Shown piece by piece: positions 764 through 39,000 of a DNA stretch of 64,000 nucleotides; the first letter of the stretch is position 1; each line of letters starts with the position of its first letter. The DNA lies in contig CBDCYX010000012.1 in NCBI GenBank assembly GCA_965224385.1, positions 246,426 to 310,425 of the forward strand, in the 5' to 3' direction. This DNA is from Bacteriovoracaceae bacterium (GTDB lineage: Bacteria > Bdellovibrionota > Bacteriovoracia > Bacteriovoracales > Bacteriovoracaceae). The position numbers and the translations under genes are program-made. The notes beneath the pieces were generated by a model that did no database searches, was not told the DNA's origin, and worked only from the letters and a program-made list of their open reading frames with translations.

Positions 764-1696
764 ATGTTTCAATATATTGGAGGAGTTCCTCAGTTCATTA
801 TCCCGGACAATTGTAAAACGGCGGTTGTGCAAACCAACAAGTACGATCCTGTAATAAATTCTACTTATCTAGATATGTGTAATCACTATGGCATAACGGT
901 AGATCCTGCAGATCCCGTAAGTCCCAAGCACAAACCTAACGTAGAAAGGGCCGTAGGAATAATCCAACGGGATTTTTTTCCAAGAATTAGGAGGAAGGTG
1001 TTTAGTTCCCTTGTATCACTGAATAGTGATTTACATTCATGGTTAGTTACGGCAAACAAGAAAGTTGTCAAGGGCCGAGGGCAGTCCCGATCATTTTTTA
1101 TGGAAAAAGAGCGTTGTAACTTCAAACCTCTGCCCTCGTATCCTTACGAACTCTTTTTTTTTAAAAAGGCCAAAGTTCATCACGATTGTCACTTTCACCA
1201 CAATAAGAATTATTATTCTGTTCCCTATCACTATGTAGGGAAAGAAATCGATGTGAAGTTCAATTCAAAGATGATTCATGTTTATTTCCAATGTGATCTA
1301 ATCACTTCCCATGTGGTTTGTAAGGGAACATATCATTACTCGACAAACAATGCTCATTATCCGGAAAAGAAGTATGTGGATACCAACTATTATCTTTCCC
1401 AAATAAGAATTAAGTCCCAACAACTTGGCCCCGATGTTTATGCCGTCATTGAACGGCCTATTGGAGAATCAAAACATCCCTTGAAAATACTCCGTAAGGG
1501 GCAAGGGATTATTAATCTTGAGAAAGAATTTTCGAGGAATGCCATAAACCATGCCTGTAAGATGGCACTGGAATTTAATTGTATGAACTACGACAACATT
1601 AAGAGGTTCGCAAAGAACTATAAAAACCCTCTAGAGGATATTCTTACAAAAACACCAAAACGTGAAATTCAATACACGTATTACCAAGGAGAATGA
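764..1696 (+). pseudogene. istA: IS21-family transposase IstA, C-terminal ~310 codons only
   Basis: The ORF begins mid-domain (..YIGGVPQFIIPDNCKTAV.. DDE-region style). Upstream, 640-735 encodes IstA-like GEIQTE.. residues in a different frame that ends in a stop. It is followed 4 nt later by istB. Confidence 0.7.
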
Positions 1697-1699
1697 ATA

Positions 1700-1911
1700 A
1701 TGAACGAATGTAATGAACTTTTAAACGAACTTAAATTTTTTGGAATGAAAGCATCTCTTGAACATAGGTTAGCAGAGGCACGAAGGTCTTCCTTAGACTG
1801 TAAAGAGTTTTTTTCTCTTATGCTAGAAGATGAAAAGCTTTACAGAATCAACAGAAAAAGTGAAATGCTAAGAAAGCGGGCAAAGTTCAATAACAGGACT
1901 TACTTAGAGGA
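1700..1911 (+). pseudogene. istB: IstB helper ATPase, N-terminal part (gene interrupted at 1912)
   Basis: The frame runs ..NNRTYLED and then enters the IS terminal repeat. It continues in frame at 3539. Confidence 0.8.
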
Positions 1912-3530
1912 CTTGAGAGTCCAAAGTTCTCATCGCTCTGAGTATTTGATATACTCTCCCCCTAGGAGTGCCTCCATTTGCTAAAAAGTCCCTATTTGAG
2001 AGGGAGAAGTGCCCCTATGCGGCCCTTTGTTCTCTAGGAGGCCCGGTACTCCATAGTTTTTTTGCAAACTTTTGCCAAGACTTGGTCTGAGGCAAAGTCC
2101 ATCGAAAATCCTGTAGCATACTTCTTAAGGCCCTTTGAGTAACCTGAACAGATGCGGCAACCCCAGGCCGTATGGTTCTCAACCAACTCCTGTGACATCT
2201 CCAGACTTCGTCGGAATGATAGAGAGATAAATATTGACAAAGTCCTTGAGCGATAATAGCGATTTGAATATAGAGATGGTAGGCCGACATTTTGATAGAA
2301 ATCTTATTTTTTAATCTCTTGGATTCTCGATGAATATAGCGGTCTCCTTCAGACCTTCTCGTCTTTCTCATTCCCTTAATCCGGAAACGATAAGAAAATG
2401 CACCGATAATATGTTTCAATTCCTTAAAAGAATATTCTATTTTAAAACGCTTTGAATAAGACACGACTATTTGTTCAGCGGTTAAATTTAAATCGGTTGT
2501 CATAAATATTACCTTTCCACGGGCAGGGTGATTGACAAGACAAAATCTCACAAGTCCACCGTATGACTTCCACAGTAAATCATAAATTCCGTAACTGACT
2601 ATGGTCTTCTCTTCTCCGTAAACAGATATTTCCATTGTTAAAGATAGTTTGGAGAACAAATCCCATAACTTCACTTTCGGCCCATAAAGTTTAGGTCTTC
2701 CCCTGCCTTGGTAGACCGTTACCGGAAAATAGGCCACGGCATTCTTTCTTACTCTCGTGATTAGTTCGATACCCTCTGTCTTGAGGTTGCGGGCCAATCT
2801 CCCTCCGCAATAATAGCTATCGGCCAAAAGATATGCTCCCAACTTTTGAAAATTAATTCCAAGAGACATCATCATTGTCAAAAATTTATCCATTAAGGTT
2901 TTTTTTTCACGGCCACCCGTACGAATACCCTCATGTATCCGGCAAGTGAGAGGAACCGACACTTCCGTATTTCCGTTACAGGCCAAAATAGAAACTTCTT
3001 GCAAGGAATGTCCCATTATCCACTCCGGTTTGGAATTGCTCTCTGAAGACTGGCGGAGGAGTTTTACAGACGGCATACACCGACCCTCTTTGGAAATCTT
3101 CAAACCATCGCCGAGCAAAACGATTTTACCGTTGAGGAGATAGAGCTTGGATAAAAAACAGTCGAGAACCAAAGAACACCAATGCTGTGTTAAGAGTTTA
3201 AAGTCTATTGCTCCGGATTGGAAGAAGTGCAATATCTTGGTATAGAATTTTGGATTTACACTGATAGAGCGAATAATACTTGATACTCCTCCATCCATAT
3301 CTTCCCGAACAGCTATCCCGGCAAGTGCCGTGACAAACCATTGAAATGTTCGTATTCGTTTAAATGCCGGACGGAGTTTGAAAACGATTGCCATCCAATT
3401 TGCCCACATAGAAATCTCCTTTTTTGTGGTGAAATAAAGAGATTCTATAATAGGGATAAGGCACTTGTCTCCGGACGGCACTATACCTTACTGAAACACT
3501 TTATTAAATGGAGAACTTTGGACTCTCAAG
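1912..3530 (-). mobile_element. Intact 1619-bp IS (IS4-superfamily-like) nested inside istB
   Basis: Perfect 20-bp terminal inverted repeats CTTGAGAGTCCAAAGTTCTC (1912-1931; reverse complement at 3511-3530). 8-bp direct target duplication TTAGAGGA (1904-1911 and 3531-3538). A single transposase ORF fills the element. Confidence 0.9.
2015..3481 (-). CDS. DDE transposase of the nested IS
   Basis: 488-aa ORF with DDE-type motifs LLGDGLK, LLADSYY and RFKIEYSFKELK. The true start may be an internal Met (MWANW..). Confidence 0.8.
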   Translation of the reverse strand: MPSGDKCLIPIIESLYFTTKKEISMWANWMAIVFKLRPAFKRIRTFQWFVTALAGIAVREDMDGGVSSIIRSISVNPKFYTKILHFFQSGAIDFKLLTQHWCSLVLDCFLSKLYLLNGKIVLLGDGLKISKEGRCMPSVKLLRQSSESNSKPEWIMGHSLQEVSILACNGNTEVSVPLTCRIHEGIRTGGREKKTLMDKFLTMMMSLGINFQKLGAYLLADSYYCGGRLARNLKTEGIELITRVRKNAVAYFPVTVYQGRGRPKLYGPKVKLWDLFSKLSLTMEISVYGEEKTIVSYGIYDLLWKSYGGLVRFCLVNHPARGKVIFMTTDLNLTAEQIVVSYSKRFKIEYSFKELKHIIGAFSYRFRIKGMRKTRRSEGDRYIHRESKRLKNKISIKMSAYHLYIQIAIIAQGLCQYLSLYHSDEVWRCHRSWLRTIRPGVAASVQVTQRALRSMLQDFRWTLPQTKSWQKFAKKLWSTGPPREQRAA

Positions 3531-4186: not shown

Positions 4187-4642
4187 ACACCGAGTCCTCA
4201 TGTAATCCTATTACGATTGAAGGAGGGGCAACCGCTAGTTGGATACGGGGTGCCGCCGCAACGGCAGACGTTTGCCTCTTTTCCTGTAGTGCCGGTTTCG
4301 TGAAAAGCGGGAGGGCGTGTAATATCCCCGATACGGGAAATTATGCGGATGGGGCAGGGGCGATGCAAAGTTGCAGTACCCCTACAGGTGGGTTTAACAC
4401 CTTTTTACCCAATTCTTACAAAAGAGGGCATCGCCCGTAAGATCGTTTCTGAAGTTAGCGACGTAAACTGGGCGGGTAAACAGTACATGGATTTACCTTA
4501 CACGACGACAATACTCGATGGTTCAAGCGATGCCGGCGATGACTGCCCCGCCAACGATTTTTGTGTCGCCTTCTGGCGTGTGTTCAAAGGAACAGAAGGA
4601 AATTATGGAATCCCCTTCGGGGATCGGGACTACTCACATTAA
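4187..4642 (+). pseudogene. Dead fragment of the Cys-repeat/RCC1 lipoprotein family: 5'-truncated, internally deleted and out of frame
   Basis: 4187-4420 encodes ..TESSCNPITIEGGATASWIRGAAATADVCLFSCSAGFVKSGRACNIPDTG.., which are Cys repeats like 34633-38295. It is joined out of frame near 4420 to the last ~75 codons (LTKEGIARKIVSEVSDVNWAGKQY..FGDRDYSH*), which differ at 6 of ~228 nt from the 3' end of 55097-58249. Confidence 0.85.
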
Positions 4643-4887
4643 AAGAACATTAAAAAAATTTGCGACTTATAATAAAAGGCCCTTGCTCTTGAGTCAAACC
4701 GTTTCTTCGTATCATAAACATCTCCTTGCCGAAAACGGGAGTGTGGAACAACGGGTAAACCCGTCATAAAAACTTTCAATTTAATGGCGTAGAAAGGAGA
4801 TGTGAATAATCGATATTATTCACAGTCGTTTGTTGACACGGTGAGTTAAATTAAAAAATATCCACACAGACTACGAGTCCAGACTTC

Positions 4888-4922: not shown

Positions 4923-5963
4923 CTATCTTTTCTTACCGAGTTCTTTTTCAATCATTTTTATATCTTCTTCAGAAAGTTCCGTACTCTCTTTGATAATTTC
5001 AAAATCAACCCCTCCTTGCAGCAATTTTAAGGCAACTTTTTTCTTCTCTTCTTGCTTCCCTTCTTGTTTCCCTTCTTGTCTCCCTTCTTGTCTCCCTTCT
5101 TGTCTCCCTTCTTGTCTCCCTTCTTGTCTCCCTTCTTGTCTCCCTTCTTGTCTCCCTTTTTGGATTCCTTTTTGCATTCCTTTTTCTACGGCCTCATCCA
5201 AAGTACTTTTAAATAACTGCATAATTCTCTCCTCCTTATCTTCAACGGTTTTTTGTTCTATTAATTCTATTCTCTTCCAAGTAAATTTTGGGTCAAATCT
5301 TTTAATATAATCCACGGCCTTGACCATTTGATCTTTTTTTTCCTCTAAATTCAGTGGCCCACTTATCGTAAAAAGTTCCGAAACCGTCTTTTCATCGAGA
5401 TGCCAAATCCTCTGTAAAACAAAAAGAATCGGTGCCAATGTTTGAGTTTTTGATTGTTTTTTGACATCAAGGTCATGGACGTTTAGCAAAATCGGTTCGA
5501 AATTTAGAATGTGTTTTGCAAACTCCTTTCTAACCGAGGGTAAAAATCCCTCAAGAGCATCATGGAATTTTAAAGATTTTTGAAAAGTCTTTATTTTCCC
5601 GTGATAGAAAACAACGGGGATTATAGGAACAGGTAGCTTTTTATACATTACTGCTTGATATTCTAAAAGTTGAAACAAGAGGTTATTATCCTTGTAGGAC
5701 TTATGCTCAATAAGAAAGATAATCTTTGCTTTTTGTCCTTTGCGTCCGCCTTTGAAATTAACGGAAAAGATAAGGTCTGTTCTCTTCTCAGACCCTTCAG
5801 GGGTAAAAAATGTTTCCATCTCCGATCTGAGAGTGTCCCAATTAAAAAGGTTGAATTGAGAAGGACGAAGAACAAGTTTTAGAAATTCAACTCCATAGCG
5901 TTTTGTCGAGAAGAACTCTTTAAAAAAGTTGTTGTGGACATTGTCTTGTTGCTTGCTTGTCAT
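4923..5963 (-). CDS. Rpn/YhgA-like PD-(D/E)XK 'recombination-promoting nuclease / putative transposase' family protein
   Basis: N-terminal ..NNFFKEFFSTKRYGVEFLK.., nuclease-core-like TDLIF ... IIFLIEHKS, a (GRQE)n/(GKQE)n low-complexity linker and a C-terminal ..ALKLLQGGVDFEIIKESTELSEEDI.. helix-turn-helix-like tail. Confidence 0.75.
   Translation of the reverse strand: MTSKQQDNVHNNFFKEFFSTKRYGVEFLKLVLRPSQFNLFNWDTLRSEMETFFTPEGSEKRTDLIFSVNFKGGRKGQKAKIIFLIEHKSYKDNNLLFQLLEYQAVMYKKLPVPIIPVVFYHGKIKTFQKSLKFHDALEGFLPSVRKEFAKHILNFEPILLNVHDLDVKKQSKTQTLAPILFVLQRIWHLDEKTVSELFTISGPLNLEEKKDQMVKAVDYIKRFDPKFTWKRIELIEQKTVEDKEERIMQLFKSTLDEAVEKGMQKGIQKGRQEGRQEGRQEGRQEGRQEGRQEGRQEGKQEGKQEEKKKVALKLLQGGVDFEIIKESTELSEEDIKMIEKELGKKR
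5052..5159 (-). repeat. 12-bp tandem repeat x9 inside the Rpn-like gene (encodes GRQE x7 + GKQE x2)
   Basis: Units TTGTCTCCCTTC (plus strand) counted directly. The first two and the last unit are slightly variant. Confidence 0.95.
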
Positions 5964-6313: not shown

Positions 6314-6874
6314 ATGGAGGTAATTATGGATCGTTTCAACAAGAGGTGTTTGATGGATCGCAAAATTGTTCAATTGCTCATAAACGGGAAAAGCTTTAAT
6401 AGAATCGCTCGGGATCATCATGTGAGCAAAATTCGTATTAGAAAGGTAAAAGAGAAGGCCCTAAAAGCAGGTTATTTTGACGGACGAGAGATTCCGCCAA
6501 CTCCTGAGGCACTTTATCTTAAAAAGGCCGTTGAGATAGGGCCTTATGCGGAATTAATGATAAAGACGATTTTGCTTTTCGGTAGAGGTTTTGTAGATAC
6601 CAGACAAGTCTGGGGTATTTTACATTTAGTTAAGGATTATCCAAAATCTCAAGTAGAGAATGCCTGTAAAAATGCTTATGAATGTGAGCAGATAAGTTAT
6701 CGATCTGTATTGTCGTTTTTAAACCTTCTACCTGTTCAAGAAAATATTAAACCGATGGGTGAAAATAAGTTCATCAGAAAGACAAAAGAATATTTTAACG
6801 GCCATACCGAGTGTAACCATCAAGAAGTAGGGGCCACACCTGTATGTCCGTTAACAACTAAGGAGAAATTATGA
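6314..6874 (+). pseudogene. istA: IstA-like ORF retaining the N-terminal HTH and C-terminal tail but missing the DDE core
   Basis: Only 186 aa. It has HTH-like LINGKSFNRIARDHHVSKIRIRKV and then a C-terminal-type segment (..VWGILHLVKDYPKSQVENACKNA..). No DDE region is visible. Its stop overlaps the istB start. Confidence 0.6.
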
Positions 6875-8998: not shown

Positions 8999-9937
8999 AT
9001 GTTGTCAATATCACAAAAAATAAAAAAAGAATTATTAAAGGGGAGGAATTCTAACATTATTGATATAGAAGCAATTCAAGCAGGAGCTTCTCTTGCAAAA
9101 GAAGTTTTAACATACTCCTCAAAGAATAAAAAAACATCCGGATCCATTGACCCTCTTAATAAACTATATATTGATATTACAAATTACCTTGGAGGCATAG
9201 TTGAAACTTTTAATGGGCTTAATGCTTTTAGAAAAGTAGCAAATAAAATGCTAAAAGATCGAGATGATTATATGCCAAGCTATCCTCCTATGAGTCCTAT
9301 AAGTAAGTCTTATTACATTGCATGGGAACTCTATGATATGCAACTTGGAATAGAAAAAGAAACTCTTGCTAGTATAATTCTTGATACTCTAAGTTTACAC
9401 AAAGATGTTGTAGATGCAGAATTAATAAAAATAATAAAACATATTACTCAAACAAAAATGGGTATTTTTGAAGTATGTGAAAAAAACAAAAAGCTTATTT
9501 TATTAAAGGAATTAATTTCAGAAGAGGAGTTTTGGGCCATATCTAGTTCCGGGTACGAAGGAGCTGTTGGCCAATTGTGGTATGCCAGACGAATGCCAAC
9601 AATTTTGGGCCCTTATGATTATTCTGTGATAGTTACTACCCCTTATGTTTTGCTAAACGATAAAAAAGATTGGATTGATTTTTTTAATAAGCGTGGAGTT
9701 TTTAAAAGAAACTTATACAACTTTATGAAATTTGGTCCTAAGAAAAATTTTTGGAATGAATTTATATTTTATGGTTATTATAATTTTATCGATCAAGCTA
9801 TATTTTTAAGTGGGTTACCTGAACATAACGAAATACTTCCATGCTCTAGTTCATTTCAGGGAAACAGAAGCGAAGTTATGTCACGATTAATGTTTGAATT
9901 TCACAGAGCTTCTTCTAATTCTCTTGTGAGTCCGTAG
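8999..9937 (+). CDS. Hypothetical protein (312 aa), very A+T-rich gene
   Basis: Long ORF with GGAGGA 7 nt upstream of the ATG. I recognise no motif. Confidence 0.55.
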   Translation: MLSISQKIKKELLKGRNSNIIDIEAIQAGASLAKEVLTYSSKNKKTSGSIDPLNKLYIDITNYLGGIVETFNGLNAFRKVANKMLKDRDDYMPSYPPMSPISKSYYIAWELYDMQLGIEKETLASIILDTLSLHKDVVDAELIKIIKHITQTKMGIFEVCEKNKKLILLKELISEEEFWAISSSGYEGAVGQLWYARRMPTILGPYDYSVIVTTPYVLLNDKKDWIDFFNKRGVFKRNLYNFMKFGPKKNFWNEFIFYGYYNFIDQAIFLSGLPEHNEILPCSSSFQGNRSEVMSRLMFEFHRASSNSLVSP

Positions 9938-10054: not shown

Positions 10055-11735
10055 GTGCGCCAAGTAAAGCGCAAATAATCCGGTTGGTGAAAATCCAACC
10101 AAGAGAAAGAGAGGTCATCACTCTTGAAGAGACCCTCGCATTTATGGAGGCGACAAAATAAATGAGGCCGAGGGAATCAATGCACCAGGCCGTAACGAAA
10201 GTGAACGTGTTTGGCCCCGTAATTTTCATCGTGACAAAGGTCGACGCTTCCCATTGCAGCGGAAGACAGCATAATTTCTCACGACAACGACAAGAGAGAG
10301 ATAACTTTGTCGGGGTTTTAAGCGATGGCATGGTTCAAGATGGATTATTTGTGAACTTGGGATATCTGCATAGTTCTGCCAGAGAAGGAAGGCGGTATGT
10401 CGGAACAAGTCTGAAAGGACGAGGACTGACAAAAGACGATGCAGAAGTCGGATCGGGAGGTAGTACTTGGAGCGAGATAAGGACTCGCACATGGGGAAGC
10501 ACCCGACAGCTAGATGGCAATTTTAACACCGGTACTCGTAACCCACCGAGGTTAACAGAATGAGGACGCTTGGTAAGTTAAAGTTGATAGCGGAAAAGGC
10601 AAAGAGGGATAAAGGGTTTAAGTTTACATCACTTGCCCACCTTATTAACGAGGAGTCCCTTTGTATGTGCTACGGTGAACTTAAAAGAAGTAAGGCACCT
10701 GGCATTGATGGAGTAACGGTCGAAGACTACGGAGAAAATCTAGAGGAGAACCTGAAGTCCCTCGTGGAACGGATGAAGACGAAGAGATATCGACCTCAAC
10801 CGGTAAAGCGAGTTCACATTCCGAAACCGGGAAAGAGAGAAAAGCGGAAGCTGGGAATCCCAACGGTAGAAGATAAGTTGGTTCAACTAATGATGAAGAA
10901 AATTTTGGAGTCAATTTTTGAACAAGATTTTTCTGACATCTCCTATGGTTTTAGACCACAAAGGAACTGTCATCAGGCAGTGAATCGTCTTGATAAGACG
11001 GTAATGAGAACATCGGTTAACTATGTAGTGGATGTAGATATTGAAAAGTTTTTCGATAATGTATCCCATTACTGGTTACTGAGATGTTTGGAGGAAAGGA
11101 TCAACGATCCTAACTTTCTCCTACCGGTGAGAAGATTCTTGAAAGCAGGCATATGGGAGGAAGGAATCCTTCACTCAAGCAAAGTAGGGACTCCTCAAGG
11201 AGGAGTGATTACTCCGATATTAGCGAACATTTATCTTCATTATGTATTAGATATCTGGTTTGAACGACGATTCAGACGAGAGTCGAAAGGTAAGGTAGAA
11301 ATGATTCGTTACTGTGACGACTTTGTAGTCTGCTGTGAGAGCAAGAAGGATGCAGAAAACTTTGTAGAGGACTTGGGAAAGAGATTTTCAAAATTCAACT
11401 TGAATATTTCCCAAGAAAAGACCTCTATTGTTAAGTTTGGTAGAAATGCTTGGAAGACCTATGAAAAGGGTGGCAAGCGAGTAGCAACCTTTAACTTTTT
11501 AGGATTCACCCACTATTGTACAAAAAGTCGCAGAGGTAAGTTTATTATGGGGCATAAGACTCAGAAGAATAAACTATCCAAGGCGGTAAGAGAGCTTAAT
11601 ACCTGGTTAAAGAAGATCAGAAACATGCTCCCATTGCGAGAATGGTGGAAAATCCTAAGAGCAAAACTTGTAGGACATTACAATTACTTTGGGATTAGCG
11701 GGAATATGAGATGCCTAAGGCAATTTTATATTATT
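10055..11735 (+). mobile_element. Group II intron, 3'-truncated (domains V/VI not found)
   Basis: Starts with the canonical GTGCG (10055-10059). ~500 nt of structured non-coding RNA precede the intron-encoded RT ORF. RT homology stops near ..LRQFYII, and no domain V-like hairpin is visible in 11735-11975. Confidence 0.7.
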
Positions 11736-11810
11736 GCCAGATTTTCCCGTTTTAAGGGCAGTTTTTTTCAGCTTTGTTTAAAACCTATGGCATCAACTCT
11801 TTGCTTGTAA
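10560..11810 (+). CDS. Group II intron reverse transcriptase/maturase (C-terminus replaced by unrelated sequence)
   Basis: RT motifs PGIDG, GIPTVEDKLVQ, GFRPQRNCHQA, TPQGGVITPILANIYL and YCDDFVV. Maturase-X motif LVGHYNYFGISGN. No endonuclease domain is present. Confidence 0.85.
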   Translation: MRTLGKLKLIAEKAKRDKGFKFTSLAHLINEESLCMCYGELKRSKAPGIDGVTVEDYGENLEENLKSLVERMKTKRYRPQPVKRVHIPKPGKREKRKLGIPTVEDKLVQLMMKKILESIFEQDFSDISYGFRPQRNCHQAVNRLDKTVMRTSVNYVVDVDIEKFFDNVSHYWLLRCLEERINDPNFLLPVRRFLKAGIWEEGILHSSKVGTPQGGVITPILANIYLHYVLDIWFERRFRRESKGKVEMIRYCDDFVVCCESKKDAENFVEDLGKRFSKFNLNISQEKTSIVKFGRNAWKTYEKGGKRVATFNFLGFTHYCTKSRRGKFIMGHKTQKNKLSKAVRELNTWLKKIRNMLPLREWWKILRAKLVGHYNYFGISGNMRCLRQFYIIARFSRFKGSFFQLCLKPMASTLCL

Positions 11811-11975: not shown

Positions 11976-13391
11976 CTATGAAGTATCAGGTGAACGTCTT
12001 TTAATCAAAAGTTCCAAAAGATGTTGCCAACCTTCCAATGGTATAAGCTCGTAGGCCGTTCGAATAACATCATAAAGATGGGACTTATATTTATAAACGG
12101 CCAAGGCCTTTTGAAAAATAATGTCTTTGAGCTGAACCGTTTGATCTATAAGAAATTGCAACATCATTAAGAGAACAACTACATAAGAAAGATTTTTCTT
12201 CCCATGCCCAAAATTGTGTTTAAAATGATATCCCTCAACAGTCAATGTTCTAAAAGTATTATTCTCAATATGCCACCGCACTCTTCCTCCTTTCATAACT
12301 TCAAAAACATTCATAGAATGTCCTTTAATCTGAGAACGTTCGGGATTCATCAAAGTGATGTCCGTCACCCAAGAAAAATGCTTTTTAACGACTTCTAATC
12401 CTCGCTTCCCTTGCCACCGAATCGTTTCCTTGTAGTCCAAAAAATTACAGGTAAACTCTGCTGAAGATGCAGAATTGTCTAATCGAAGATCATTACTGTG
12501 TCGGAATCTTTGAGAAACTTCTTTCTTAACCTTCTCACCGATTTGTTCGTTACGTTCGTAAGAGATCACAGGTTCTTCATTTTCTTTTAGTCGATTATCT
12601 TTATCTCGACACGCTCGGTCTTCGACAAAGTTAAAAAGCTTTTTATGACCTTTAGGCCTAACATTAAGAATGTAAGACATCTTGTGTGCTTGAAGGTACC
12701 GAACAAGGTCTCCTCTAGCATACAAGGCATCTCCGCAGATAATCATGTTGAGTTGAGGATGATCTTTTCTCAAGCGTTTAATTAATCTCTTCGTTGCAGA
12801 ATATTCACAGTCATTCTTCTCGCTACCGTCACTTTTCATAATACCTTCAACCGCAAGTGGGATAACTTCTTTTTTTGAAGGGTGAACTATGACTGCAGAA
12901 ACAATTTGGTGGTAATACGTTTCCGTACCGTTCCTATGACGTTTAACCATGCAAGAATCGCAATGAATTTCTTTAGATGAAAAATATTGTGTCCCGTCGA
13001 TTGCTACAAGATAATAGGGTCGTTTGTTTTTTCGAGTAAACTCAAAATCAGTGAGACTCTTGTTCCGTTGAAGGTACTGAAAAAGAGATTTGAAGAGAGG
13101 ATATAAATATTCCGGGGAAATTTCGTCAAGAATTTTCCGTGTTTGTGTATCTGAAGGGATTTTCTTAAGTCCGAAGAGTGATGCAAAATTTCCGCCAGAC
13201 TCATCATTGGCACGGACTTCCTCAAGCTTTAGCAATGAAGGCAATTTTAAAGCGAAGATTCCTAACATACTCATGAGCGCATCCTCTAAGGGAATGCTTT
13301 TATTTGGGCCTCTAGCATCCGGTATCTTTTTAAATCCTTTGTAAATATGAGAAAACAATTTCTCATAAAGTCCGCTAATCCTTCTCATCAT
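11976..13391 (-). CDS. DDE transposase of the 'type-2' IS (IS4-superfamily-like), full length
   Basis: 471 aa with LVAIDGTQ, ICGDALYA and RWHIENNTFRTLT motifs. N-terminal fragments of the same family occur at 8434-8563 and 53186-53235. Confidence 0.8.
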   Translation of the reverse strand: MMRRISGLYEKLFSHIYKGFKKIPDARGPNKSIPLEDALMSMLGIFALKLPSLLKLEEVRANDESGGNFASLFGLKKIPSDTQTRKILDEISPEYLYPLFKSLFQYLQRNKSLTDFEFTRKNKRPYYLVAIDGTQYFSSKEIHCDSCMVKRHRNGTETYYHQIVSAVIVHPSKKEVIPLAVEGIMKSDGSEKNDCEYSATKRLIKRLRKDHPQLNMIICGDALYARGDLVRYLQAHKMSYILNVRPKGHKKLFNFVEDRACRDKDNRLKENEEPVISYERNEQIGEKVKKEVSQRFRHSNDLRLDNSASSAEFTCNFLDYKETIRWQGKRGLEVVKKHFSWVTDITLMNPERSQIKGHSMNVFEVMKGGRVRWHIENNTFRTLTVEGYHFKHNFGHGKKNLSYVVVLLMMLQFLIDQTVQLKDIIFQKALAVYKYKSHLYDVIRTAYELIPLEGWQHLLELLIKRRSPDTS

Positions 13392-13459
13392 AAATATTAA
13401 AGCAAAAAAATTATTCCTTGAACAGGCCTAATGCAGCGCAAATGCTTATTTATTTTTAT

Positions 13460-13705
13460 CTCAAGTGTGGCCCTAAAACCTCTTTCTTCAGGGAGAGGAT
13501 GTGAGGCCACGCCCTTCGGCGAGAAAAAAAAATATTGTCTTTTGAAGAATATCATAATATATTGGATTTGTCGGAACAAAAACCGACCTACCGTAGGGAC
13601 TACGGGATGTGAAGCTCGTGGAGACGGTGTAAGACCTAGGAACTCGTGTTCTAGGCGTTTGTCGGTGAAGCAAGAATCTCCTCACTTTAGTGAGGGGTAG
13701 TTCAA
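13460..13705 (+). mobile_element. Non-autonomous IS200/IS605 mini-element (LE + linker + RE/omega-RNA-like scaffold), copy A
   Basis: The first ~72 bp match the LE of the full IS (reverse complement of 25720-25791). The last ~130 bp align with the tnpB 3' end/RE (reverse complement of 24058-24200). It is preceded by TTTAT and ends in TTCAA. It sits in the leader of the type-2 IS. Confidence 0.85.
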
Positions 13706-14012
13706 GGAATACAAGTAGGCCAGAAATCTTATGTAAGAGAAAATTTAAGCTAAAATTGTCTAGAATGGCGGTATGGAGATTTCTTCGTAAGTTTGACCAC
13801 TCGTTCAAAAAAGTTCAGAAAGAATACTGTGAGACGAATAAAACGAACCAGACAAAATGGAAAAAATATATTCTACCAAAAATCAAAAAAACGGTTAAAC
13901 CCCATAGCGCCTACTTTATAAGAAAAATTATGCCAAAAGACCTTGAATTCTTTCAAATATACCGTATTATTCAGTCTAGTGATGCGCTTGTGATGTGAAT
14001 TCAGGCAAAATA

Positions 14013-15473
14013 ATGAGAAACCCTCTTTTTCACTTTATTTCCATGATGTCTTTTTTTCTTATGGATTATCCTCTTGTAGAGGCAAGTCAGAAAAATCTAA
14101 AACAAGAACAAAAAACGGTATCTCTTTTTAGAGGAGTACTTAACAAAAATGGATATAATTGTCTCCCCTATAATAATGGGAAAAACTGTCTTGCTATGTT
14201 TGTCGATTTTTCCATAGAAAAAGTTTTTTTAAAAAAATGTGAACAAATAGAAGAGCAAAGAAATAACGGTAGCTATCAATGTGAAGAGGAAAGAGTTTTG
14301 GATTTTGATGAAATTTACATATTTACAGAAAGCTCTTATTGTAAAATGGAAACAAATCAGAAGTACTGCAGAGTTTTTAAAGAATTTAGAAAAACATATT
14401 ATCCATGGATTGGAAAAAGATTTGTAGGAGGAATAGAAAATATTCTTTCTAGTGCAGCGATAGGTCTTATGCTTTTTGGTGCTGTAGCACTTATGGGATT
14501 TATTGGTCATGGAATAGGTATCGGAAGTAAATATTTTTTTGAAACTGCAAAAAACAGTGTGCTTATTGGAACCTACATTGGAATAGTTTTTGGAGGTATC
14601 TTTGCTGCCGGTTATGGCATTCGTTTTTCTTTAATAGGCGGAATTTTTGGTTTTCATATAATATTGGGTGGGTTTCTTGGTGCTATCATGGGGGGCGTTT
14701 TAACAGCTATTTTTTTAGGTCGAATTCCTCACGTTTTAGGTGCTATTGCCATTGGAGGTATGATCGGAACCGTCTTTGGAAGCATTTCCGGTGGTTCTTT
14801 TTTAGAAAAGTTTAGAAGATCTGAAATGGTTTCTGAGTTACAGCATTATTATAATCAATACAATTTTAGTAAAGAAGAAATAAACCTTATGATCAATAAT
14901 CTAGACCCGGTTTCAAATCTACCTCATGACAATAATGAGAGAAAACGATTGTCATATGAATTTAAAGACATTCTCTTAAAGTTGTGTAAAAACCCCTGTA
15001 AATTAAAACCAAAAGTAGGGAAACCTTTTAATATAGAATGGTTTGAGAAAGAAAATAACAAAAAAGAAATACCTCACAAAAGCTTTATCGAGATAAGATT
15101 AAATGGTAAATATTTTGATTTATTTGAAGCATTGCCGGAGAGAGAAACTCCTTTACCTTTTGCTCAAAAGCTGTTTTTTAGTGACCATCGTTATCAAATA
15201 TATTCATTTACTGTATCTGTTGCTTCTACAACAGGATATGATTACTATTTTAGAAGAATTGGCGATGAGTTTTACCTCTTAAACCCTGATCCGATCCCCA
15301 TGCTTAATTATGATTACAATGCAAAAGGAAAAGATAATAATGAAAATTTTTTTAGTATTGGAAGTTTCAGAGGCCGTCATTTCGATAAAAATGGTAAGAA
15401 AGCTACCTTAGAATCTTTAAGAACAAATTATAAATTGGAGGATAATCGTCTTATTGTAACGGAGGCGGAATAA
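14013..15473 (+). CDS. Membrane protein with signal peptide and Gly-zipper transmembrane region
   Basis: The ORF opens at 13995 (GTG). The ATG at 14013 gives MRNPLFHFISMMSFFLMDYPLVEA. The central region is GxxxG-rich (..GGIFAAGYG..GGIFGFHIILGGFLGAIMGG..). Confidence 0.6.
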   Translation: MRNPLFHFISMMSFFLMDYPLVEASQKNLKQEQKTVSLFRGVLNKNGYNCLPYNNGKNCLAMFVDFSIEKVFLKKCEQIEEQRNNGSYQCEEERVLDFDEIYIFTESSYCKMETNQKYCRVFKEFRKTYYPWIGKRFVGGIENILSSAAIGLMLFGAVALMGFIGHGIGIGSKYFFETAKNSVLIGTYIGIVFGGIFAAGYGIRFSLIGGIFGFHIILGGFLGAIMGGVLTAIFLGRIPHVLGAIAIGGMIGTVFGSISGGSFLEKFRRSEMVSELQHYYNQYNFSKEEINLMINNLDPVSNLPHDNNERKRLSYEFKDILLKLCKNPCKLKPKVGKPFNIEWFEKENNKKEIPHKSFIEIRLNGKYFDLFEALPERETPLPFAQKLFFSDHRYQIYSFTVSVASTTGYDYYFRRIGDEFYLLNPDPIPMLNYDYNAKGKDNNENFFSIGSFRGRHFDKNGKKATLESLRTNYKLEDNRLIVTEAE

Positions 15474-15482
15474 TATGCAATA

Positions 15483-15560
15483 GGCCTTAATGCTTTCAAA
15501 CATGGGGCCTTTGAGAAGATCAATATTTTCATGGGCCGTACAAGAGATGGGAAGAATTTT
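15483..15560 (-). pseudogene. obg: obg (GTPase) remnant, C-terminal piece
   Basis: Translates as KKILPISCTAHENIDLLKGPMFESIKAY, matching the Obg pattern P.ISA.T.EGID.L. Confidence 0.45.
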
Positions 15561-15565
15561 TTTAT

Positions 15566-15811
15566 CTCAAGTGTGGCCCTAAAACCTCTTCCTTCAGGGA
15601 GAGGATGTGAGGCCACGCCCTTCGGCGAGAAAAAAAAATATTGTCTTTTGAAGAATATCATAATATATTGGATTTGTCGGAACAAAAACCGACCTACCGT
15701 AGGGACTACGGGATGTGAAGCTCGTGGAGACGATGTAAGACCTAGAAACTTGTGTTCTAGGCGATTGTCGGTGAAGCAAGAATCTTCTCACTTTAGTGAG
15801 GGGTAGTTCAA
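15566..15811 (+). mobile_element. Non-autonomous IS200/IS605 mini-element, copy B
   Basis: 246 bp, near-identical to copies A and C. Preceded by TTTAT (15561-15565) and ends in TTCAA (15807-15811). It separates the two obg remnants. Confidence 0.85.
15641..15669 (+). promoter_or_regulatory. Putative sigma70-type promoter in the mini-element linker, reading into the omega-RNA-like scaffold
   Basis: TTGTCT-17 nt-TATATT. The same motif is at 13535-13563 (copy A) and 52033-52061 (copy C). A diverged version, TTGACA-17 nt-TTAAAT, is at 39001-39029 (copy D). Confidence 0.4.
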
Positions 15812-16010
15812 TGAGTGCTTTTTCAAAAAAGTTTTGAAATTTTTTTGTCTCCTTTTGGGAAGAGCATCAATTTTTGCAAGGCAAACGATTTCTGTTTTCT
15901 TTAACAACTCCGGATTATATTTTTCAAGCTCGATCTTAACCGTCGTATAAGCATTGTAGGCCTCATAGACGTCAAGGCACCACGAAATATCAACTATATG
16001 GACAAAGGCC
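15812..16010 (-). pseudogene. obg: obg (GTPase) remnant, central piece
   Basis: Translates as AFVHIVDISWCLDVYEAYNAYTTVKIELEKYNPELLKKTEIVCLAKIDALPK. This matches the Obg pattern HV.D.S...D...Y..I..EL..Y...L..K..IV..NK.D, with the NKxD Asn replaced by Ala. The N-terminal two thirds are absent. Confidence 0.55.
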
Positions 16011-21541: not shown

Positions 21542-24061
21542 GTGAAAATAATAACATTAATGTTTTTTCTTTATTCTTGCACGAAATTATCCCTTAACGT
21601 TATCTCGGACAACAAGTACAAAACCTCTTGTGATGAGGGAAATCTGTGGGGATGTTTCAAACAAGGAGTTTTGGAAGATAGAAAGGGAAATACCGCCGAT
21701 GCCATGGGTTTTTATAAAAAGTCCTGTGAAGGAGGAAATGCTTTGGCCTGTCACAATTTAAAATTATTACGGCTAGAGAGTAAAAAAATATCTAACTTTT
21801 CTAAAAAAATTTCTCGAGTTGATGCAGTTTTTGAAAATGAAAAAATAGAAAAACGAAATGAATATTCAATGAAAAATATGGAAAAAGAAAGCATTTCCAA
21901 TGAAAAGTTGTTATTTCAAAAGGCCTGTGACGAAGGGGATGAATCTGCATGTTTTAATCTCGGAGTTATAGAGATAGAACAAAGAGATATCGCCACGTCA
22001 AAAAAAGATTATAGAAGAAATTGTAAGACCGGGAAGATGCCGGCATGTTTTTATCTTGGGCTTATAGAAGATCAACAAAAAAACAAGGCCTCGGCGAAAA
22101 AATATTACAAAAAGGCCTGTGATGGTGGGCATATACCCGCGTGTTTCAATTTTGGAATCGAAGAGGAAGAGAAAAGAAAATTTACCAACGCAAAAAAATA
22201 CTATAAAAAGGCCTGTGACGGTGGACATATGCCGGCATGTTTCAATCTTGGAGTTGCAGAAGAAAAGAAAAGACAATTTTTTAATGCAAAAAAACACTAT
22301 GGAAAGTCCTGTGTCGGTGGAGCTATGCCCGGTTGTTTTAATCTTGGACTTATAGAGGATAAACAAGGAAATATTGTTAGGGCCAAAGAATTATATGAAA
22401 AGAGCTGTAATACGGGAAATATGCCAGGATGTTTTAATCTTGCAATGATAGAGATAAAACGAGGAAATAAGTTCAATGCTACAAAGTATTATAAAAAATC
22501 CTGCGATGGCGGGTATATGCCCGGATGTTCTAATCTGGGCATTATGGAAAATAAAAAAGGCAATATTGCCAATGCCAAAAAATTTTACAAAAAGGCCTGT
22601 AACGGCAAGAATATGTCGGGATGTTTTAATCTTGGGGTTGTAACAACAAACCAAGGACATACTGATCAGGCCAAAAAATATTATAAAAAATCCTGTGATA
22701 AAGGATTTTTACCCGGATGTTCTAATCTTGGTATTATAGAAATTAATCAAAAAAATCTATCCGATGCCAAAAAATATTATAACAAGGCCTGTAAAGGTGG
22801 GAATATGTCGGGATGCTTTCATCTTGGAGTTATGGAGGATAAGCAAAAAAAGATATCCGATTCAAAAAAATATTATCAAAAGGCCTGTAACGGTAGGTAT
22901 ATGGCAGGATGTTTTAACCTTGGAGTTGTGAACGATAAACAAAAAAATACGGCCTTGGCCAAAAAGTATTACAGCAAGGCCTGTCAAGGTAAATATGTTT
23001 TGGGATGTTTTAATCTTGGAGTTGAAACGGAAAGAAAAGGAAATCTAATCAGCGCAAAAAAATACTATAAAAAAGTCTGTATCGGTGGGAATATGCAAGG
23101 ATGCTCTAACCTTGGAGTTATAGAAGGTAAGCAGGGGAATCGCCCTCTAGCAAAAAAATACTACAAAAAGGCCTGTCTAAGAGGCAATATGAAAGGATGT
23201 TCTAATTTAGGTGTTATAGAAGATCAACAGGGAAATGAGGACTTGGCAAAAAAATACTATGAAAAATCTTGTGACGGTGGACATACCGTTGGATGTTTTA
23301 ATCTTGGAACCGGAGAGAAACAAAAACAAAATATTGCCAATGCCAGAAAATATTACAAAAAGGCCTGTAACGGCGGATTTACTAACGGATGTAAAATGAT
23401 AGAGAGAATGAATGATTTACAACAATCAAGAATTGCAGGGTCCGGATCCGGTGTTTTTGTTTCAAACGAAGGCCGTATTATCACAAATCAACATGTCGTT
23501 AAACAATGTCGTAGTGTAAGTATCGGCAAAAGTATGAAAGAGCAAAAAACGGCCAAAATCGTCAAAATGGACCCGTCTATTGATTTGGCCGTTCTCACAT
23601 CAGAAAATAAATCGATGGGAGGCAATCTCTCTTCTAAAGAGGCCGCATTTGGAGAGAAGATTATAGTTGCCGGCCATTCCTACCGTTTTCCTCTTAAAGA
23701 TTCTATTCAAGTTACCGAAGGAATAGTAAGTTCTATTGATGTTTCCCGAAAAAATATTAAGGAAAAGTTTCAAATGTCTGCGGCCGTTCTGCCGGGAAAC
23801 AGCGGAGGCCCAATCTACGATAAAAAAGGAAACATCATCGGCATCTCCCTCTTTCCGCTCGATAAGGCCGCCGTAGCAAAAAAGACGAAAAGTATTCTTG
23901 AAAAAAACGTCAATGTCGGTATCAAATCCTCGGCAGTTAGACGGTTTTTGGCCGGTTCGGGAGTGCCCTATAACTCCTCCTACAGGAAAAAAACTTTATC
24001 CGATAGAAAACTTGCAAGTATCGCTAAAGAGCAGGCCGTTATTGTCCTCTGTTATCATTGA
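21542..24061 (+). CDS. Sel1-like-repeat protein fused to a C-terminal trypsin-like (S1-type) serine protease domain; probable lipoprotein
   Basis: Roughly 17 tandem ~36-aa units (AKKYYKKACDGG.M.GCFNLG.). The C-terminal triad context is ITNQHVV / DLAVL / GNSGGP. N-terminal MKIITLMFFLYSC (lipobox-like). The stop codon lies inside the IS605 right end. Confidence 0.8.
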   Translation: MKIITLMFFLYSCTKLSLNVISDNKYKTSCDEGNLWGCFKQGVLEDRKGNTADAMGFYKKSCEGGNALACHNLKLLRLESKKISNFSKKISRVDAVFENEKIEKRNEYSMKNMEKESISNEKLLFQKACDEGDESACFNLGVIEIEQRDIATSKKDYRRNCKTGKMPACFYLGLIEDQQKNKASAKKYYKKACDGGHIPACFNFGIEEEEKRKFTNAKKYYKKACDGGHMPACFNLGVAEEKKRQFFNAKKHYGKSCVGGAMPGCFNLGLIEDKQGNIVRAKELYEKSCNTGNMPGCFNLAMIEIKRGNKFNATKYYKKSCDGGYMPGCSNLGIMENKKGNIANAKKFYKKACNGKNMSGCFNLGVVTTNQGHTDQAKKYYKKSCDKGFLPGCSNLGIIEINQKNLSDAKKYYNKACKGGNMSGCFHLGVMEDKQKKISDSKKYYQKACNGRYMAGCFNLGVVNDKQKNTALAKKYYSKACQGKYVLGCFNLGVETERKGNLISAKKYYKKVCIGGNMQGCSNLGVIEGKQGNRPLAKKYYKKACLRGNMKGCSNLGVIEDQQGNEDLAKKYYEKSCDGGHTVGCFNLGTGEKQKQNIANARKYYKKACNGGFTNGCKMIERMNDLQQSRIAGSGSGVFVSNEGRIITNQHVVKQCRSVSIGKSMKEQKTAKIVKMDPSIDLAVLTSENKSMGGNLSSKEAAFGEKIIVAGHSYRFPLKDSIQVTEGIVSSIDVSRKNIKEKFQMSAAVLPGNSGGPIYDKKGNIIGISLFPLDKAAVAKKTKSILEKNVNVGIKSSAVRRFLAGSGVPYNSSYRKKTLSDRKLASIAKEQAVIVLCYH

Positions 24062-24220
24062 ACTACCCCTGCCTAAAGGGAGGAGATTCTTGCTTCCCCG
24101 ACAACTGCCTTAGGCACAAGTACCTTTGGTCTTACACTGTCTCCACAAGCTGTCACGGTAGTCCCTACCGCCAAAACATTCTTTGCCGCATTGATGTCTC
24201 GGTCGTGAGTACTCCCACAA
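24058..24220 (-). ncRNA. Predicted omega RNA (reRNA) scaffold of TnpB, overlapping the tnpB 3' end and RE
   Basis: The position is canonical for TnpB guide RNAs. The region is conserved in the coding-free mini-elements, with compensatory stem changes. The 5' boundary is uncertain. Confidence 0.55.
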
Positions 24221-25245
24221 CTTGGACAATCCCAACGACGCATACTTAATTGCAATTCTTTGTTTCTATATCCACAATGTGAGCAATCTTGGGACGTGAA
24301 TTTTGGGGAAACTTTTTTCAATTCCCTACCGTACCAATCACATTTATACTCAAGGAAATTTACAAGACTTCCCCAAGAACTGTCACTTATGGACTTAGAA
24401 AGTTTTCTATTCCTAACCATTCCTTTTGTGTTCAAGTCCTCGATATAGACCACTTGGTTCTTGCGAACTATATCCGTACTTAACTTATGGAGGAAGTCCT
24501 TCCTGGAATTTCTTATCTTTGAGTGGACTCGTGCCACAAGGTTTCTCTGTTTTTCTCTATTCTTTGAACCCTTCTTTTTACGAGACAGGGACTTTTGTTC
24601 CATTCTTAGTTTGCTCTCTTGAATGTAAGTATACTTCGGATTGCCCGATTGAAAACCGTCGCTACCAACTGCTACATCCTTGATTCCCATATCTAGGCCG
24701 ATTGTTTTTCTTACAAGCGCCAAGGGGCGCATCTTCTCTTCTACCAGTATCGAAACAAAGTAACTTCCGTCACAATCTTTGGATATTGTTAACGATGAGG
24801 GCGTTCCTGCGGTGGAACCGCAAAATTTTCTCGACCATACAGGTTGTATCCCTCCCAATTTCGCAACCTTTAAAATGCCGTCTCGAAAAGTGAATCCATT
24901 CTTCATGTAGTTGGCCGATTGTTTCCCGGCCCTATTCTTGAAACGTGGATATTTTGCCAATCTCTTAAAAAAGTTAGAATACGCCCTATCTAAATGCCTC
25001 AAAGATTGCTGAAGCGTCACACTTGAAACATCAGACAACCACTCCTTTTCAAACTTTAGTTCTTTTAGTCTTTTGGACGTTTCATTGTAACCGAGACCTT
25101 TACCGGTTTTTTCATACGCCGTCTTCCTATCTTGAAGGCCCCAATTATAGACAAAACGAACACAACCAAAGGTTTGGGCCAACATCTTCTTTTGGGTCTT
25201 ATTCGGATAGAATCGGTATTTGTATGCTCGCTTGACTACCTTCAT
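24073..25245 (-). CDS. tnpB: TnpB RNA-guided endonuclease (IS605 OrfB family), catalytic residues present
   Basis: MKVVKRAYKYRFYPNKTQ start. RuvC motifs IGLDMGIKD, VYIEDL and HDRDINAAKN. Zinc finger CSHCG...CPSCG. Confidence 0.9.
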   Translation of the reverse strand: MKVVKRAYKYRFYPNKTQKKMLAQTFGCVRFVYNWGLQDRKTAYEKTGKGLGYNETSKRLKELKFEKEWLSDVSSVTLQQSLRHLDRAYSNFFKRLAKYPRFKNRAGKQSANYMKNGFTFRDGILKVAKLGGIQPVWSRKFCGSTAGTPSSLTISKDCDGSYFVSILVEEKMRPLALVRKTIGLDMGIKDVAVGSDGFQSGNPKYTYIQESKLRMEQKSLSRKKKGSKNREKQRNLVARVHSKIRNSRKDFLHKLSTDIVRKNQVVYIEDLNTKGMVRNRKLSKSISDSSWGSLVNFLEYKCDWYGRELKKVSPKFTSQDCSHCGYRNKELQLSMRRWDCPSCGSTHDRDINAAKNVLAVGTTVTACGDSVRPKVLVPKAVVGEARISSL

Positions 25246-25269
25246 CATCTCAACTATACTTGGTCTCAT

Positions 25270-25695
25270 TTGAAAAGGCAAACAAGCAATGACAGGATTC
25301 GTAAGGGAAGGCATTGTGTCTTTGCTTTAACCGTGCATTTGGTCTTTGTGCCAAAATATCGGCGAAAAGTATTCTCAAAAGAATTACTTGATATTGTACA
25401 AAGCTATTTTGAGAAGGTTTTGGACGATTTTGAAGCAACTTTAGTGGAATTTAACGGAGAATCCGATCATGTGCATCTTCTCATCGAATATCCACCAAAA
25501 CACTCTATCTCAAGAATGGCAAATTCTTTAAAAGGCGTTTCAAGTAGATATTTGAGGCAATATCATTGGAAAAAAGTTTCTCCTTTTCTTTGGGGAAAGG
25601 CATTTTGGAGTCCAAGCTATTTCGCAGGAAGTGCCGGAGGTGCAACTATTGAAAAACTTAAGCAATACATCGAAGAACAAAATACTCCATCTTAA
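25270..25695 (+). CDS. tnpA: IS200-type Y1 (HUH) transposase TnpA
   Basis: HLVFVPKYRRKVF, HUH motif DHVHLLI and catalytic-Tyr context WSPSYFAGSAGG. No ATG is at the right distance, so a TTG at 25270 is proposed. Confidence 0.8.
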   Translation: MKRQTSNDRIRKGRHCVFALTVHLVFVPKYRRKVFSKELLDIVQSYFEKVLDDFEATLVEFNGESDHVHLLIEYPPKHSISRMANSLKGVSSRYLRQYHWKKVSPFLWGKAFWSPSYFAGSAGGATIEKLKQYIEEQNTPS

Positions 25696-25845
25696 GAAAA
25701 ATCTATTTGTTCAGGCCACAAATCATTCTCGCCGAAGGGCGTGGCCTCACATCCTCTCCCTGAAGGAAGAGGTTTTAGGGCCACACTTGAGATAAATAAA
25801 GGGTACTCAAAAAAGACATTGCTATTCTTACCTTCTTGTGCTAAA

Positions 25846-38295: not shown

Positions 38296-38408
38296 AAAGC
38301 TCTCCTTGCTTTTAAATGTGGTTAAAAAATAATAGTCCTCCTTTATAATAAATTTTGAACACCGAAAACGCAAAAGATTTTTATATTACCGATTAAAATG
38401 GTTCATTA

Positions 38409-38938: not shown

Positions 38939-39000
38939 TACAGATTAAGTGCGTTGAACCAAAAACGGCCGGAAAAACGCCGGGAACTTTTGAAATTTTA

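Follow-up and report, generated by a model that had tools for sequence, protein, structure and literature searches.

The stretch of DNA analysed here, hereafter the window, comprises 64,000 nucleotides (nt) of contig CBDCYX010000012.1 from a Bacteriovoracaceae bacterium. The LipA protein that it encodes has its closest matches, at 64–66% identity, in metagenome-assembled genomes labelled Bacteriovoracaceae or Halobacteriovoraceae. It contains a repeat family that consists of three gene-less elements of 245 to 246 bp and one copy reduced to a right end (RE), all on the plus strand, as well as a full insertion sequence (IS) of the IS605 type on the minus strand. The small copies, or minis, are referred to as c1 (13460–13705, 246 bp), c2 (15566–15811, 246 bp), c3 (51958–52202, 245 bp) and c4 (39055–39178), and the full element as the resident IS (24058–25791, 1734 bp). 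When c2 was used as the blastn query against the window, c1 was 97.6% identical over 246 nt, c3 97.2% identical and c4 86.4% identical over 125 nt; the left end (LE) of the resident IS (25791–25726, minus strand) matched at 100% over 66 nt and its RE (24168–24058) at 79% over 115 nt, and the window held no further matches to c2. Chance is excluded as the source of these repeats, since the E-values of the full copies were 1e-116 or better and pattern searches with up to three mismatches recovered the same sites with no match in 100 shuffles; a repeat finder concurred. An earlier interpretation of the letters by themselves, called here the sequence-only reading, had given the positions of four copies, and all three approaches located them there, with a correction to the start of c4 that is given below.

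Every full copy has the same anatomy, namely an LE, an A/T-rich linker of about 60 nt and a right part homologous to the 3′ end of tnpB plus the RE, with TTTAT directly 5′ of the element and GTAGTTCAA at its 3′ end. In c1, TTTAT lies at 13455–13459, the LE at 13460–13525, the linker at 13526–13586 and the right part, which is the scaffold discussed below, at 13587–13705; TTTAT, LE and scaffold are found at 15561–15565, 15566–15631 and 15693–15811 in c2 and at 51953–51957, 51958–52023 and 52085–52202 in c3. The LE is the same as that of the resident IS at 66 of 66 nt, save for a single C-to-T substitution in c1, where a C-G pair becomes U·G. Its hairpin is CCTCTTCC-TTCA-GGGAGAGG, nested in GTGGCC...GGCCAC, and the RE hairpin is CTCCTCAC-TTTA-GTGAGGGG. 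The linker shows no significant similarity to the resident IS and, in c1, contains a small hairpin (GTCGG-N8-CCGAC). The right part, as delimited by a covariance model, measures 119 nt in c1 and c2 and 118 nt in c3. The sequence-only reading had recognized all three parts, but its sizes need adjustment: the LE of about 72 bp corresponds to 66 nt of homology (71 nt if the TTTAT target is counted), the linker of about 55 bp is about 60 nt long, and the right part of about 120–130 bp is replaced by the 119 or 118 nt given above.

The likeness of these elements to palindrome-associated transposable elements (PATEs), proposed earlier, is borne out by several features. First, palindromes lie near both ends, and the LE and RE are not inverted repeats of each other. 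Second, at 245–246 bp the elements are too short for a transposase and have no conserved open reading frame (ORF); the sole ORF overlapping c1 (13488–13808, minus strand, TTG start) extends into unique flank. Third, they use a fixed short target without duplicating it: TTTAT is found 5′ of the LE in c1, c2, c3, the resident IS and two metagenomic relatives of the latter (L001 and L002), and the flanks of these insertions are otherwise unrelated. Fourth, the ends are common with an autonomous, TnpA-encoding IS in the same genome, at 66 of 66 nt for the LE and 79% for the RE, which has the same GAAT...TCAA arrangement. The 97% identity of three copies at unrelated sites is indirect evidence that the minis may be mobile. 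We assign a probability of roughly 65% to the overall reading, including the mechanism proposed below, that the minis are PATEs of the IS200/IS605 family, gene-less internal-deletion derivatives that have kept a complete LE and, of the RE, exactly the portion encoding the guide-RNA scaffold. The narrower description of each as a PATE carrying a complete omega-RNA-type scaffold is very probably correct.

The resident IS is the candidate supplier of both TnpA and TnpB in trans, to judge from its genes. Its LE (25791–25726) is preceded by TTTAT at 25796–25792, and its RE scaffold occupies 24174–24058. The tnpB gene (24073–25248, minus strand, about 390 aa) encodes HTH_OrfB_IS605, OrfB_IS605 and Cas12f1-like TNB domains and lies, intact, 8.2 kb from c2; its nuclease looks intact because, when it is aligned with 11 relatives, neither the RuvC residues D185, E269 and D350 nor the zinc-finger cysteines vary. 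The segment homologous to the mini scaffold overlaps the last 34 codons of this gene. On the plus strand, tnpA (25132–25695) encodes a Y1/HUH transposase in which the whole Y1_Tnp profile is covered (PF01797, 135 bits, 1–121 of 121; residues 62–183 of the ORF, about 25315–25680), and tnpA and tnpB are divergent, as in IS605 proper. Two close relatives were found in an ENA metagenome, both with TTTAT 5′ of the element: L001, with tnpA and tnpB and a TnpB 90% identical to the resident protein, and L002, with tnpB only and a TnpB 87% identical. The resident IS sits at the extreme 3′ end of an 839-aa gene with SEL1 repeats and an HtrA-like protease domain (21542–24061). This gene takes its TGA stop and the third base of its last codon from the right end of the IS (24056–24061); it would be one codon longer without the IS (…CYQ* instead of …CYH*). 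The guide of the IS itself would run antisense to this gene's 3′ end.

Since Rfam holds no family for the scaffold, relatives were collected to build a model of our own. They comprise 80 tnpB loci (44–52% identity) from Ktedonobacteria, actinomycetes, cyanobacteria and Endozoicomonas, obtained by a protein-based scan of representative genomes; three intermediate loci of 60–65% identity (L083, L086 and L087); and 50 JGI metagenome contigs that were retrieved with a structure-aware DNA pattern and whose right ends finish in GTAGTTCAA. All relatives have a common architecture: a hairpin 1 with a 5-nt loop; a stem 2 of 4 bp, formed by the bases right before TGGAG and those after GAAG; a stem 3a of 5 bp enclosing stem 3b, which is the hairpin after GTAAGACC; and a terminal hairpin, which in the minis has a UUUA loop at –20 to –17. 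The loop of hairpin 1 can pair with positions –5 to –3, forming a possible pseudoknot. The 119-nt segment of the minis (118 nt in c3) contains every module of the TnpB guide-RNA core. In most distant relatives (L003–L082, e.g., L009 2544–2711), stem 2 and the terminal hairpin are separated by one additional hairpin, which is missing in the window's family (24058–24174), in L033, L083, L086 and L087, in the 50 metagenome loci and apparently in ISDra2; the difference is a clean insertion/deletion polymorphism of the scaffold. Because of this hairpin, a MAFFT alignment of the minis with the distant relatives misplaced the terminal hairpin, and it was replaced by anchor-based extraction and an alignment of relatives without the extra hairpin.

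The stems and the pseudoknot of the scaffold are supported by covariation. In a non-redundant set of 72 RE scaffolds taken from tnpB loci and containing no mini, hairpin 1 was 96% paired versus 78% when the partners were shuffled, stem 2 100% versus 94%, stem 3a 89% versus 61% and the pseudoknot 99.5% versus 94%. A second alignment, A6, comprises 25 right ends, again without the minis; tnpB lies upstream in all but one (L127, at a contig edge, with a C-terminal tnpB remnant only). In A6, 91.0% of the cells were paired versus 76.4% in shuffles, 18 of the 29 pairs change on both sides, and the covariation score of 0.446 (versus 0.176) was matched by none of 500 shuffles. When the 3′ partners were slid by one to three columns, at most 49% of the cells were paired. 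The closing pair of stem 2 is seen as G:C, C:G, U:A and A:U.

A covariance model of 121 positions, R1, was derived from A6 and therefore contains no mini. Over its full length (1–121 of 121), R1 scored c2 at 107.4 bits, the resident IS at 107.0, c3 at 106.0, c1 at 105.3 and c4 at 79.7, and the right ends with tnpB upstream on other contigs scored 77–120 bits. The match stops exactly at GTAGTTCAA, the RE boundary, in all copies. The position expected of an omega RNA, overlapping the 3′ end of tnpB and the RE up to the transposon boundary, is thus found in the minis, as is the conserved, covarying structure with its pseudoknot, except for one mismatch in stem 2 that is weighed below. The claim that the minis hold a complete guide-RNA scaffold is upheld by this end-to-end fit at 105–107 bits, equal to that of the resident right end, by the covariation and by the match to the ISDra2 core. 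A finding that the minis cannot fold like the cognate omega RNA, which had been named in advance as evidence to the contrary, was not made, since R1 scores them like genuine right ends. Furthermore, the six differences between c1 and c2 fall in loops or bulges or change C-G to U·G or G·U to A-U, and c1–c3 differ from c4 by a compensatory change in stem 4 (A-U to C-G) and by G-C to A-U in stem 3b, where c3 carries the c4-type variant. Pairing is preserved among these differences; with so few events, this is suggestive only. R1 can also be used to annotate orphan scaffolds outside the coverage of Rfam.

The homology of the minis to tnpB starts at about –117 to –124, at the 5′ edge of an ISDra2-type core. 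A core of 116 nt suffices for ISDra2 activity (PMC10097598), and PATEs of 52 bp, consisting of ends only, appear mobile in Haloquadratum (PMC3119063), so that the right part retained in the minis appears to be more than TnpA needs. The same trim point is found in tnpB-less elements on JGI contigs with different LEs and unrelated linkers, which makes the retention of the scaffold recurrent. These elements, in L090 (about 890–1122), L116 (1022–about 1260, minus strand), L111 (about 6590–6832) and L095 (12366–about 12615 and 9332–9447, both minus strand), consist of an LE hairpin, an A/T-rich linker and a scaffold that begins at hairpin 1. In these independent minis the LE hairpin follows TTTAC or TTTAT and R1 scores range from 99 to 111 bits; in L090 and L116, like in the window's minis, a small hairpin lies just upstream of the scaffold. 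The trim point provides an independent evolutionary pointer to the minimal functional scaffold, in agreement with the biochemically defined 116-nt core of ISDra2. Streptomyces carpinensis (L050, about 2850–3100) has a full element whose right end is followed, about 130 nt downstream, by another scaffold that lacks a tnpB of its own; this could be either a tandem insertion or an orphan right end.

These observations bear on an alternative explanation, in which the minis are inert deletion remnants that are, or once were, moved by TnpA and have kept their scaffold through youth and a chance end of the deletion, without producing a functional guide RNA. The 5′ boundary at hairpin 1 recurs in L090 and L116, L111 and L095 with unrelated LEs and linkers, and a neutral deletion is not expected to stop repeatedly at –117, since mobility needs only about 50 bp of ends (PMC3119063). 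The base pairing kept across copy differences and R1 scores equal to those of genuine right ends likewise argue against inert remnants. What speaks for them is largely the same evidence that weighs against our own reading, and the two are considered together after the origin of the ends.

The two ends of the minis differ in origin. The RE shares 71–79% identity with its resident counterpart and 78% with a lineage represented by L089, L095 and L131, and the 5′ half of the scaffold is 83% identical to still other lineages. The remnant coding frame in the minis reads TVGTTGCEARGD(G/D)VRP, versus AVGTTVTACGDSVRP in the resident TnpB, and resembles TnpBs with TVGTTGSHAxGDDVRP, which are themselves 35–42% identical to the resident protein. 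The minis are thus chimeric in origin, with an LE of resident type and an RE of foreign type that resembles another TnpB lineage; the scaffold would come from a TnpB lineage not seen in the window. The sequence-only reading had held that the copies resemble each other much more than they do the resident IS and that they stem from a different or older master. For the RE this stands, given the 79% match to the resident element in the first case and the 71–79% identity and distinct remnant frame in the second, but the LE is identical to the resident one and contradicts both statements. A search of GTDB representative genomes with an RE-end pattern gave no match.

Several results weigh against functional scaffolds in the minis. 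First, Rfam gave no meaningful match for the minis or the right end of the resident IS, either at the gathering threshold or in a permissive search (E up to 10). Second, in all four copies the third pair of stem 2 is a C·A mismatch (its C lies at 13617 in c1, 15723 in c2 and 52115 in c3), where U:A is found in all 72 of one set of other elements and in 49 of 51 of another; this mismatch could impair TnpB binding. Third, the mini scaffold has a 3-nt insertion between hairpin 1 and stem 2 relative to that of the resident IS; with this insertion and the 71–79% identity, compatibility with the resident TnpB is only assumed here. Fourth, a mini-specific pattern had no match in JGI metagenomes or IMG/VR, and a padded 41-aa query built from the readable C-terminus of the minis, with which a closer master TnpB was sought, had no words in common with any protein. 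Fifth, the promoter-like site in the linker of c1–c3 (TTGTCT-17-TATATT) agrees with the consensus at 9 of 12 positions, a match of which about 0.1 is expected by chance per such stretch, and no conserved promoter was found at a consistent position in the independent minis. The mismatch at a nearly invariant pair, the divergence of the RE from the resident IS, the failure to find a close master TnpB and the want of a convincing promoter all favour inert remnants, as does c4, which is decaying at 79.7 versus about 106 bits. Taken together with the recurrent trim point and the preserved pairing, we consider inert remnants a rather unlikely explanation. With regard to the mismatch, a tnpB-less scaffold in L101 (542–655), one of the two exceptions among the 51 elements, has the identical C·A in the third pair of stem 2 (CTCC with GAAG), which may be a coincidence or a feature tolerated in orphan scaffolds.

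The promoter-like site also raises the question of whether the minis could be mobile promoters or 5′ untranslated region (UTR) modules for downstream genes. Three of the four copies lie co-oriented and directly upstream of an ORF (c1 before 13995–15473, c3 before 52292–52951, and c4 38 nt before an ORF of 4082 aa), the linker site of c1–c3 is sigma-70-like, and upstream of c4 there is a TTGACA with an A/T-rich hexamer after it. Against this, the linker motif is weak and would arise by chance about once per ten such stretches, c2 has no co-oriented gene downstream, the independent minis lack a conserved promoter there, and conservation of the whole scaffold would be left unexplained. We regard this alternative as improbable. 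A derivation of the linker from a tnpB promoter was considered and rejected, as the best local match (TTGTCTTTTGAA versus TTGTCTTTTCAA upstream of the tnpB of L001) has p of about 0.03 before correction for five targets and is not significant.

The mechanism that we propose for the minis as scaffold-carrying PATEs is modelled on IS608 and ISDra2. IS608 of Helicobacter pylori carries both tnpA and tnpB and inserts 3′ of a short target; its RE finishes in TCAA and has GAAT on the 5′ side of the hairpin there, and four guide nucleotides preceding the LE hairpin correspond to the target (AAAG for TTAC). Compared to IS608, the window family has a different target sequence and a divergent arrangement of tnpA and tnpB, as in IS605 itself. 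If the ends of the minis are read by the rules of IS608, as we presume they can be, AAAA in the LE matches the TTAT target and GAAT in the RE matches the TCAA end. In independent relatives, AAAG occurs together with TTTAC and AAAA with TTTAT, which fits an IS608-type rule. The Y1 transposase TnpA of the resident IS would then excise and reinsert the minis as single strands, recognizing the LE and RE hairpins together with two guide tetranucleotides, one 5′ of each hairpin (AAAA at the LE for TTAT, GAAT at the RE for TCAA). A transcript running through the scaffold into at least 16 nt of flank would load TnpB made elsewhere, the putative guides being 13706–13721 (GGAATACAAGTAGGCC) for c1, 15812–15827 (TGAGTGCTTTTTCAAA) for c2 and 52203–52218 (CAAAGCAATAGTGTAG) for c3. 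After excision, the TnpB complex would cut the rejoined TTTAT plus flank, and recombination with a sister copy would restore the element. A search for TTTAT followed by each flank, suggested by the sequence-only reading for the genome, was run within the window and found no such target elsewhere with up to four mismatches. The lack of a second site is what a homing model predicts, since the target arises only after excision.

Whether TnpB actually uses the mini scaffolds appears to us an even bet. If they are expressed and used, an IS200/IS605 parasite could make do with a pair of ends plus a guide RNA and take both enzymes from elsewhere, and the mixed origin of the ends would bear on the tolerance of TnpB for non-cognate scaffolds, on competition between elements and on the engineering of compact guide RNAs. 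More tentatively, and with clear doubt on our part, the minis may be members of a class of hitchhikers reduced to a guide RNA, one that recurs and is under selection. Such IS605 derivatives, pared down in several lineages to precisely an LE and a mature omega-RNA core, would rely on TnpA for movement and on TnpB for retention, and their modules could be mixed across families; were this the case, TnpB could use scaffolds of other lineages.

The idea of a scaffold acting in trans is sound but not new, and the minis are a further example of a kind of element already described: Meers et al. reported that PATEs often encode omega RNAs that are necessarily used in trans, and in Geobacillus showed that the omega RNAs of several transposons are expressed (Meers et al. 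2023, PMC10055086); the mechanism set out above has thus been put forward for PATEs before. What the present analysis adds is a covariation-backed structure for this TnpB clade, the coincidence of the trim point with the omega-RNA core, the different origins of the two ends and the stem-2 mismatch. Compared to the minis, the PATE-like elements of Geobacillus stearothermophilus (PMC10055086) are likewise gene-less and bounded by the LE and RE of a resident IS605-family element, with an omega RNA for TnpB in trans and TnpA supplied in trans, both of which are predicted for the window's minis. They differ in host lineage and sequence family, and in that the minis combine a resident LE with an RE of another sub-lineage. 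The PATEs of Haloquadratum walsbyi (Dyall-Smith et al. 2011, PMC3119063) share the palindromes near the ends, the lack of inverted terminal repeats and of target duplication, a length too short for a transposase and an IS605-type derivation by deletion of the core; some of them, however, are 52 bp long and consist of ends alone, whereas the minis keep about 120 nt of the 3′ end. A PATE-like element of Halanaerobium hydrogeniformans (PMC7290912) is nearly the same in architecture and, at 271 nt, in size: its LE hairpin is joined to the RE and the final 58 nt of tnpB, with no tnpA and most of tnpB gone. It is a single copy, described before guide RNAs were known, whereas the window has three near-identical copies and one partial copy.

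The closest structural comparison is with ISDra2 (Karvelis et al. 2021, PMC8612924; Nakagawa et al. 2023, PMC10097598), in which the scaffold also overlaps the 3′ end of tnpB and the RE and the guide is the flank beyond the RE. Cryo-electron microscopy of its omega RNA defined a 116-nt core in which positions –20 to –17 form a UUUA loop, –5 to –3 take part in a pseudoknot and –35 to –32 make up the 3′ strand of stem 2 (PMC10097598). The UUUA loop, GUUCAA end and stem-2 strand CAAG of the minis lie at exactly the ISDra2 positions, and the 4-bp stem 2 and the arrangement of stems 3a and 3b are shared. In contrast, stem 1 of ISDra2 has a 19-nt loop that holds the pseudoknot partner, whereas hairpin 1 of the window family has a 5-nt loop (GGGAC). 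Furthermore, the transposon-adjacent motif of ISDra2 is TTGAT rather than TTTAT, and the structure of the window family is a prediction from sequence.

The partial copy c4 (39055–39178, plus strand, 79.7 bits) consists of the scaffold only, with no recognizable LE. It had been described as a fourth copy without an LE, which is correct, starting at 39001, which is not: homology begins at about 39055. The possibility that 38940–39054 is a degenerate LE and linker was rejected, as semi-global alignment against shuffles and random window segments gave p of about 0.05–0.07 for the similarity. Extra non-standard pairs are found in stem 2, stem 3a and the pseudoknot, and GTGGAA replaces the conserved GTGGAG. 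Since it has no recognizable LE, c4 should not be movable by TnpA, and it is best read as an immobile, decaying copy that probably lost its LE. Its 3′ end lies 38 nt before the ATG of the 4082-aa ORF (39216–51464), and it is a possibility that this LE-less scaffold has been immobilized and co-opted as a 5′-UTR element of that gene.

The arrangement of c1 and c2, two direct-oriented copies 2106 bp apart, might suggest that the pair forms a 2.35-kb compound transposon of the IS605 type, with the LE of c1 and the RE of c2, and in principle these two ends could move the segment between them (13706–15565) as a compound unit. The low GC content of this segment (32.4%, versus 42.4% for the window) and its 492-aa ORF, which has no family match, fit such a cargo. 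However, the flanks of c1 and c2 are unrelated and each copy has its own TTTAT, so that two independent insertions explain the layout, and the IS630 transposase fragment inside the segment suggests a dumping ground for mobile DNA. We consider a compound transposon very improbable. The 492-aa ORF, rich in glycine-zipper-like hydrophobic stretches, had no match in Pfam, NCBIfam or PADLOC; the IS630 transposase fragment (13690–13998) is weak. More generally, the ORFs adjoining the minis matched no defence-system or NCBIfam profile.

Upstream of c1 lies a group II intron (10090–11810), recognized by its domains 1–4 (Rfam RF02005, 98.6 bits, 10090–10324) and followed by a 416-aa ORF (10560–11810) that is presumably the intron reverse transcriptase/maturase. 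The intron is just upstream of c1 and of the gene for an IS4-like DDE transposase (11976–13391, minus strand). Other mobile elements also crowd the window (764–3481, 11976–13391 and 59014–60000), comprising an IS21-family fragment, an IS701-family transposase, the IS4-like DDE transposase and an Rpn/ISNCY-type gene. IS200/IS605 elements prefer the lagging-strand template. The active strand is plus for all four minis and minus for the full IS, and the GC skew of the window is weakly positive (+0.03), which fits this preference for the minis and not for the full IS but is too weak to conclude from.

The 4082-aa ORF downstream of c4 has many RCC1-type repeats, and c3 lies 494 nt downstream of it. 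Paralogues with RCC1 repeats are found at 34633–38373, 55097–58249 and 63021–63941 on the minus strand and at 4189–4728. They share stretches of 150–300 nt that are 80–97% identical, both direct and inverted (repeat families D4, D7, D9, D11 and I2–I6), and look like recombining paralogues. Finally, a perfect-to-near-perfect 12-nt tandem repeat, (CTTCTTGTCTCC)n, occupies 5012–5191 within an ORF on the minus strand (4923–5963), where it would encode a repetitive peptide tract.

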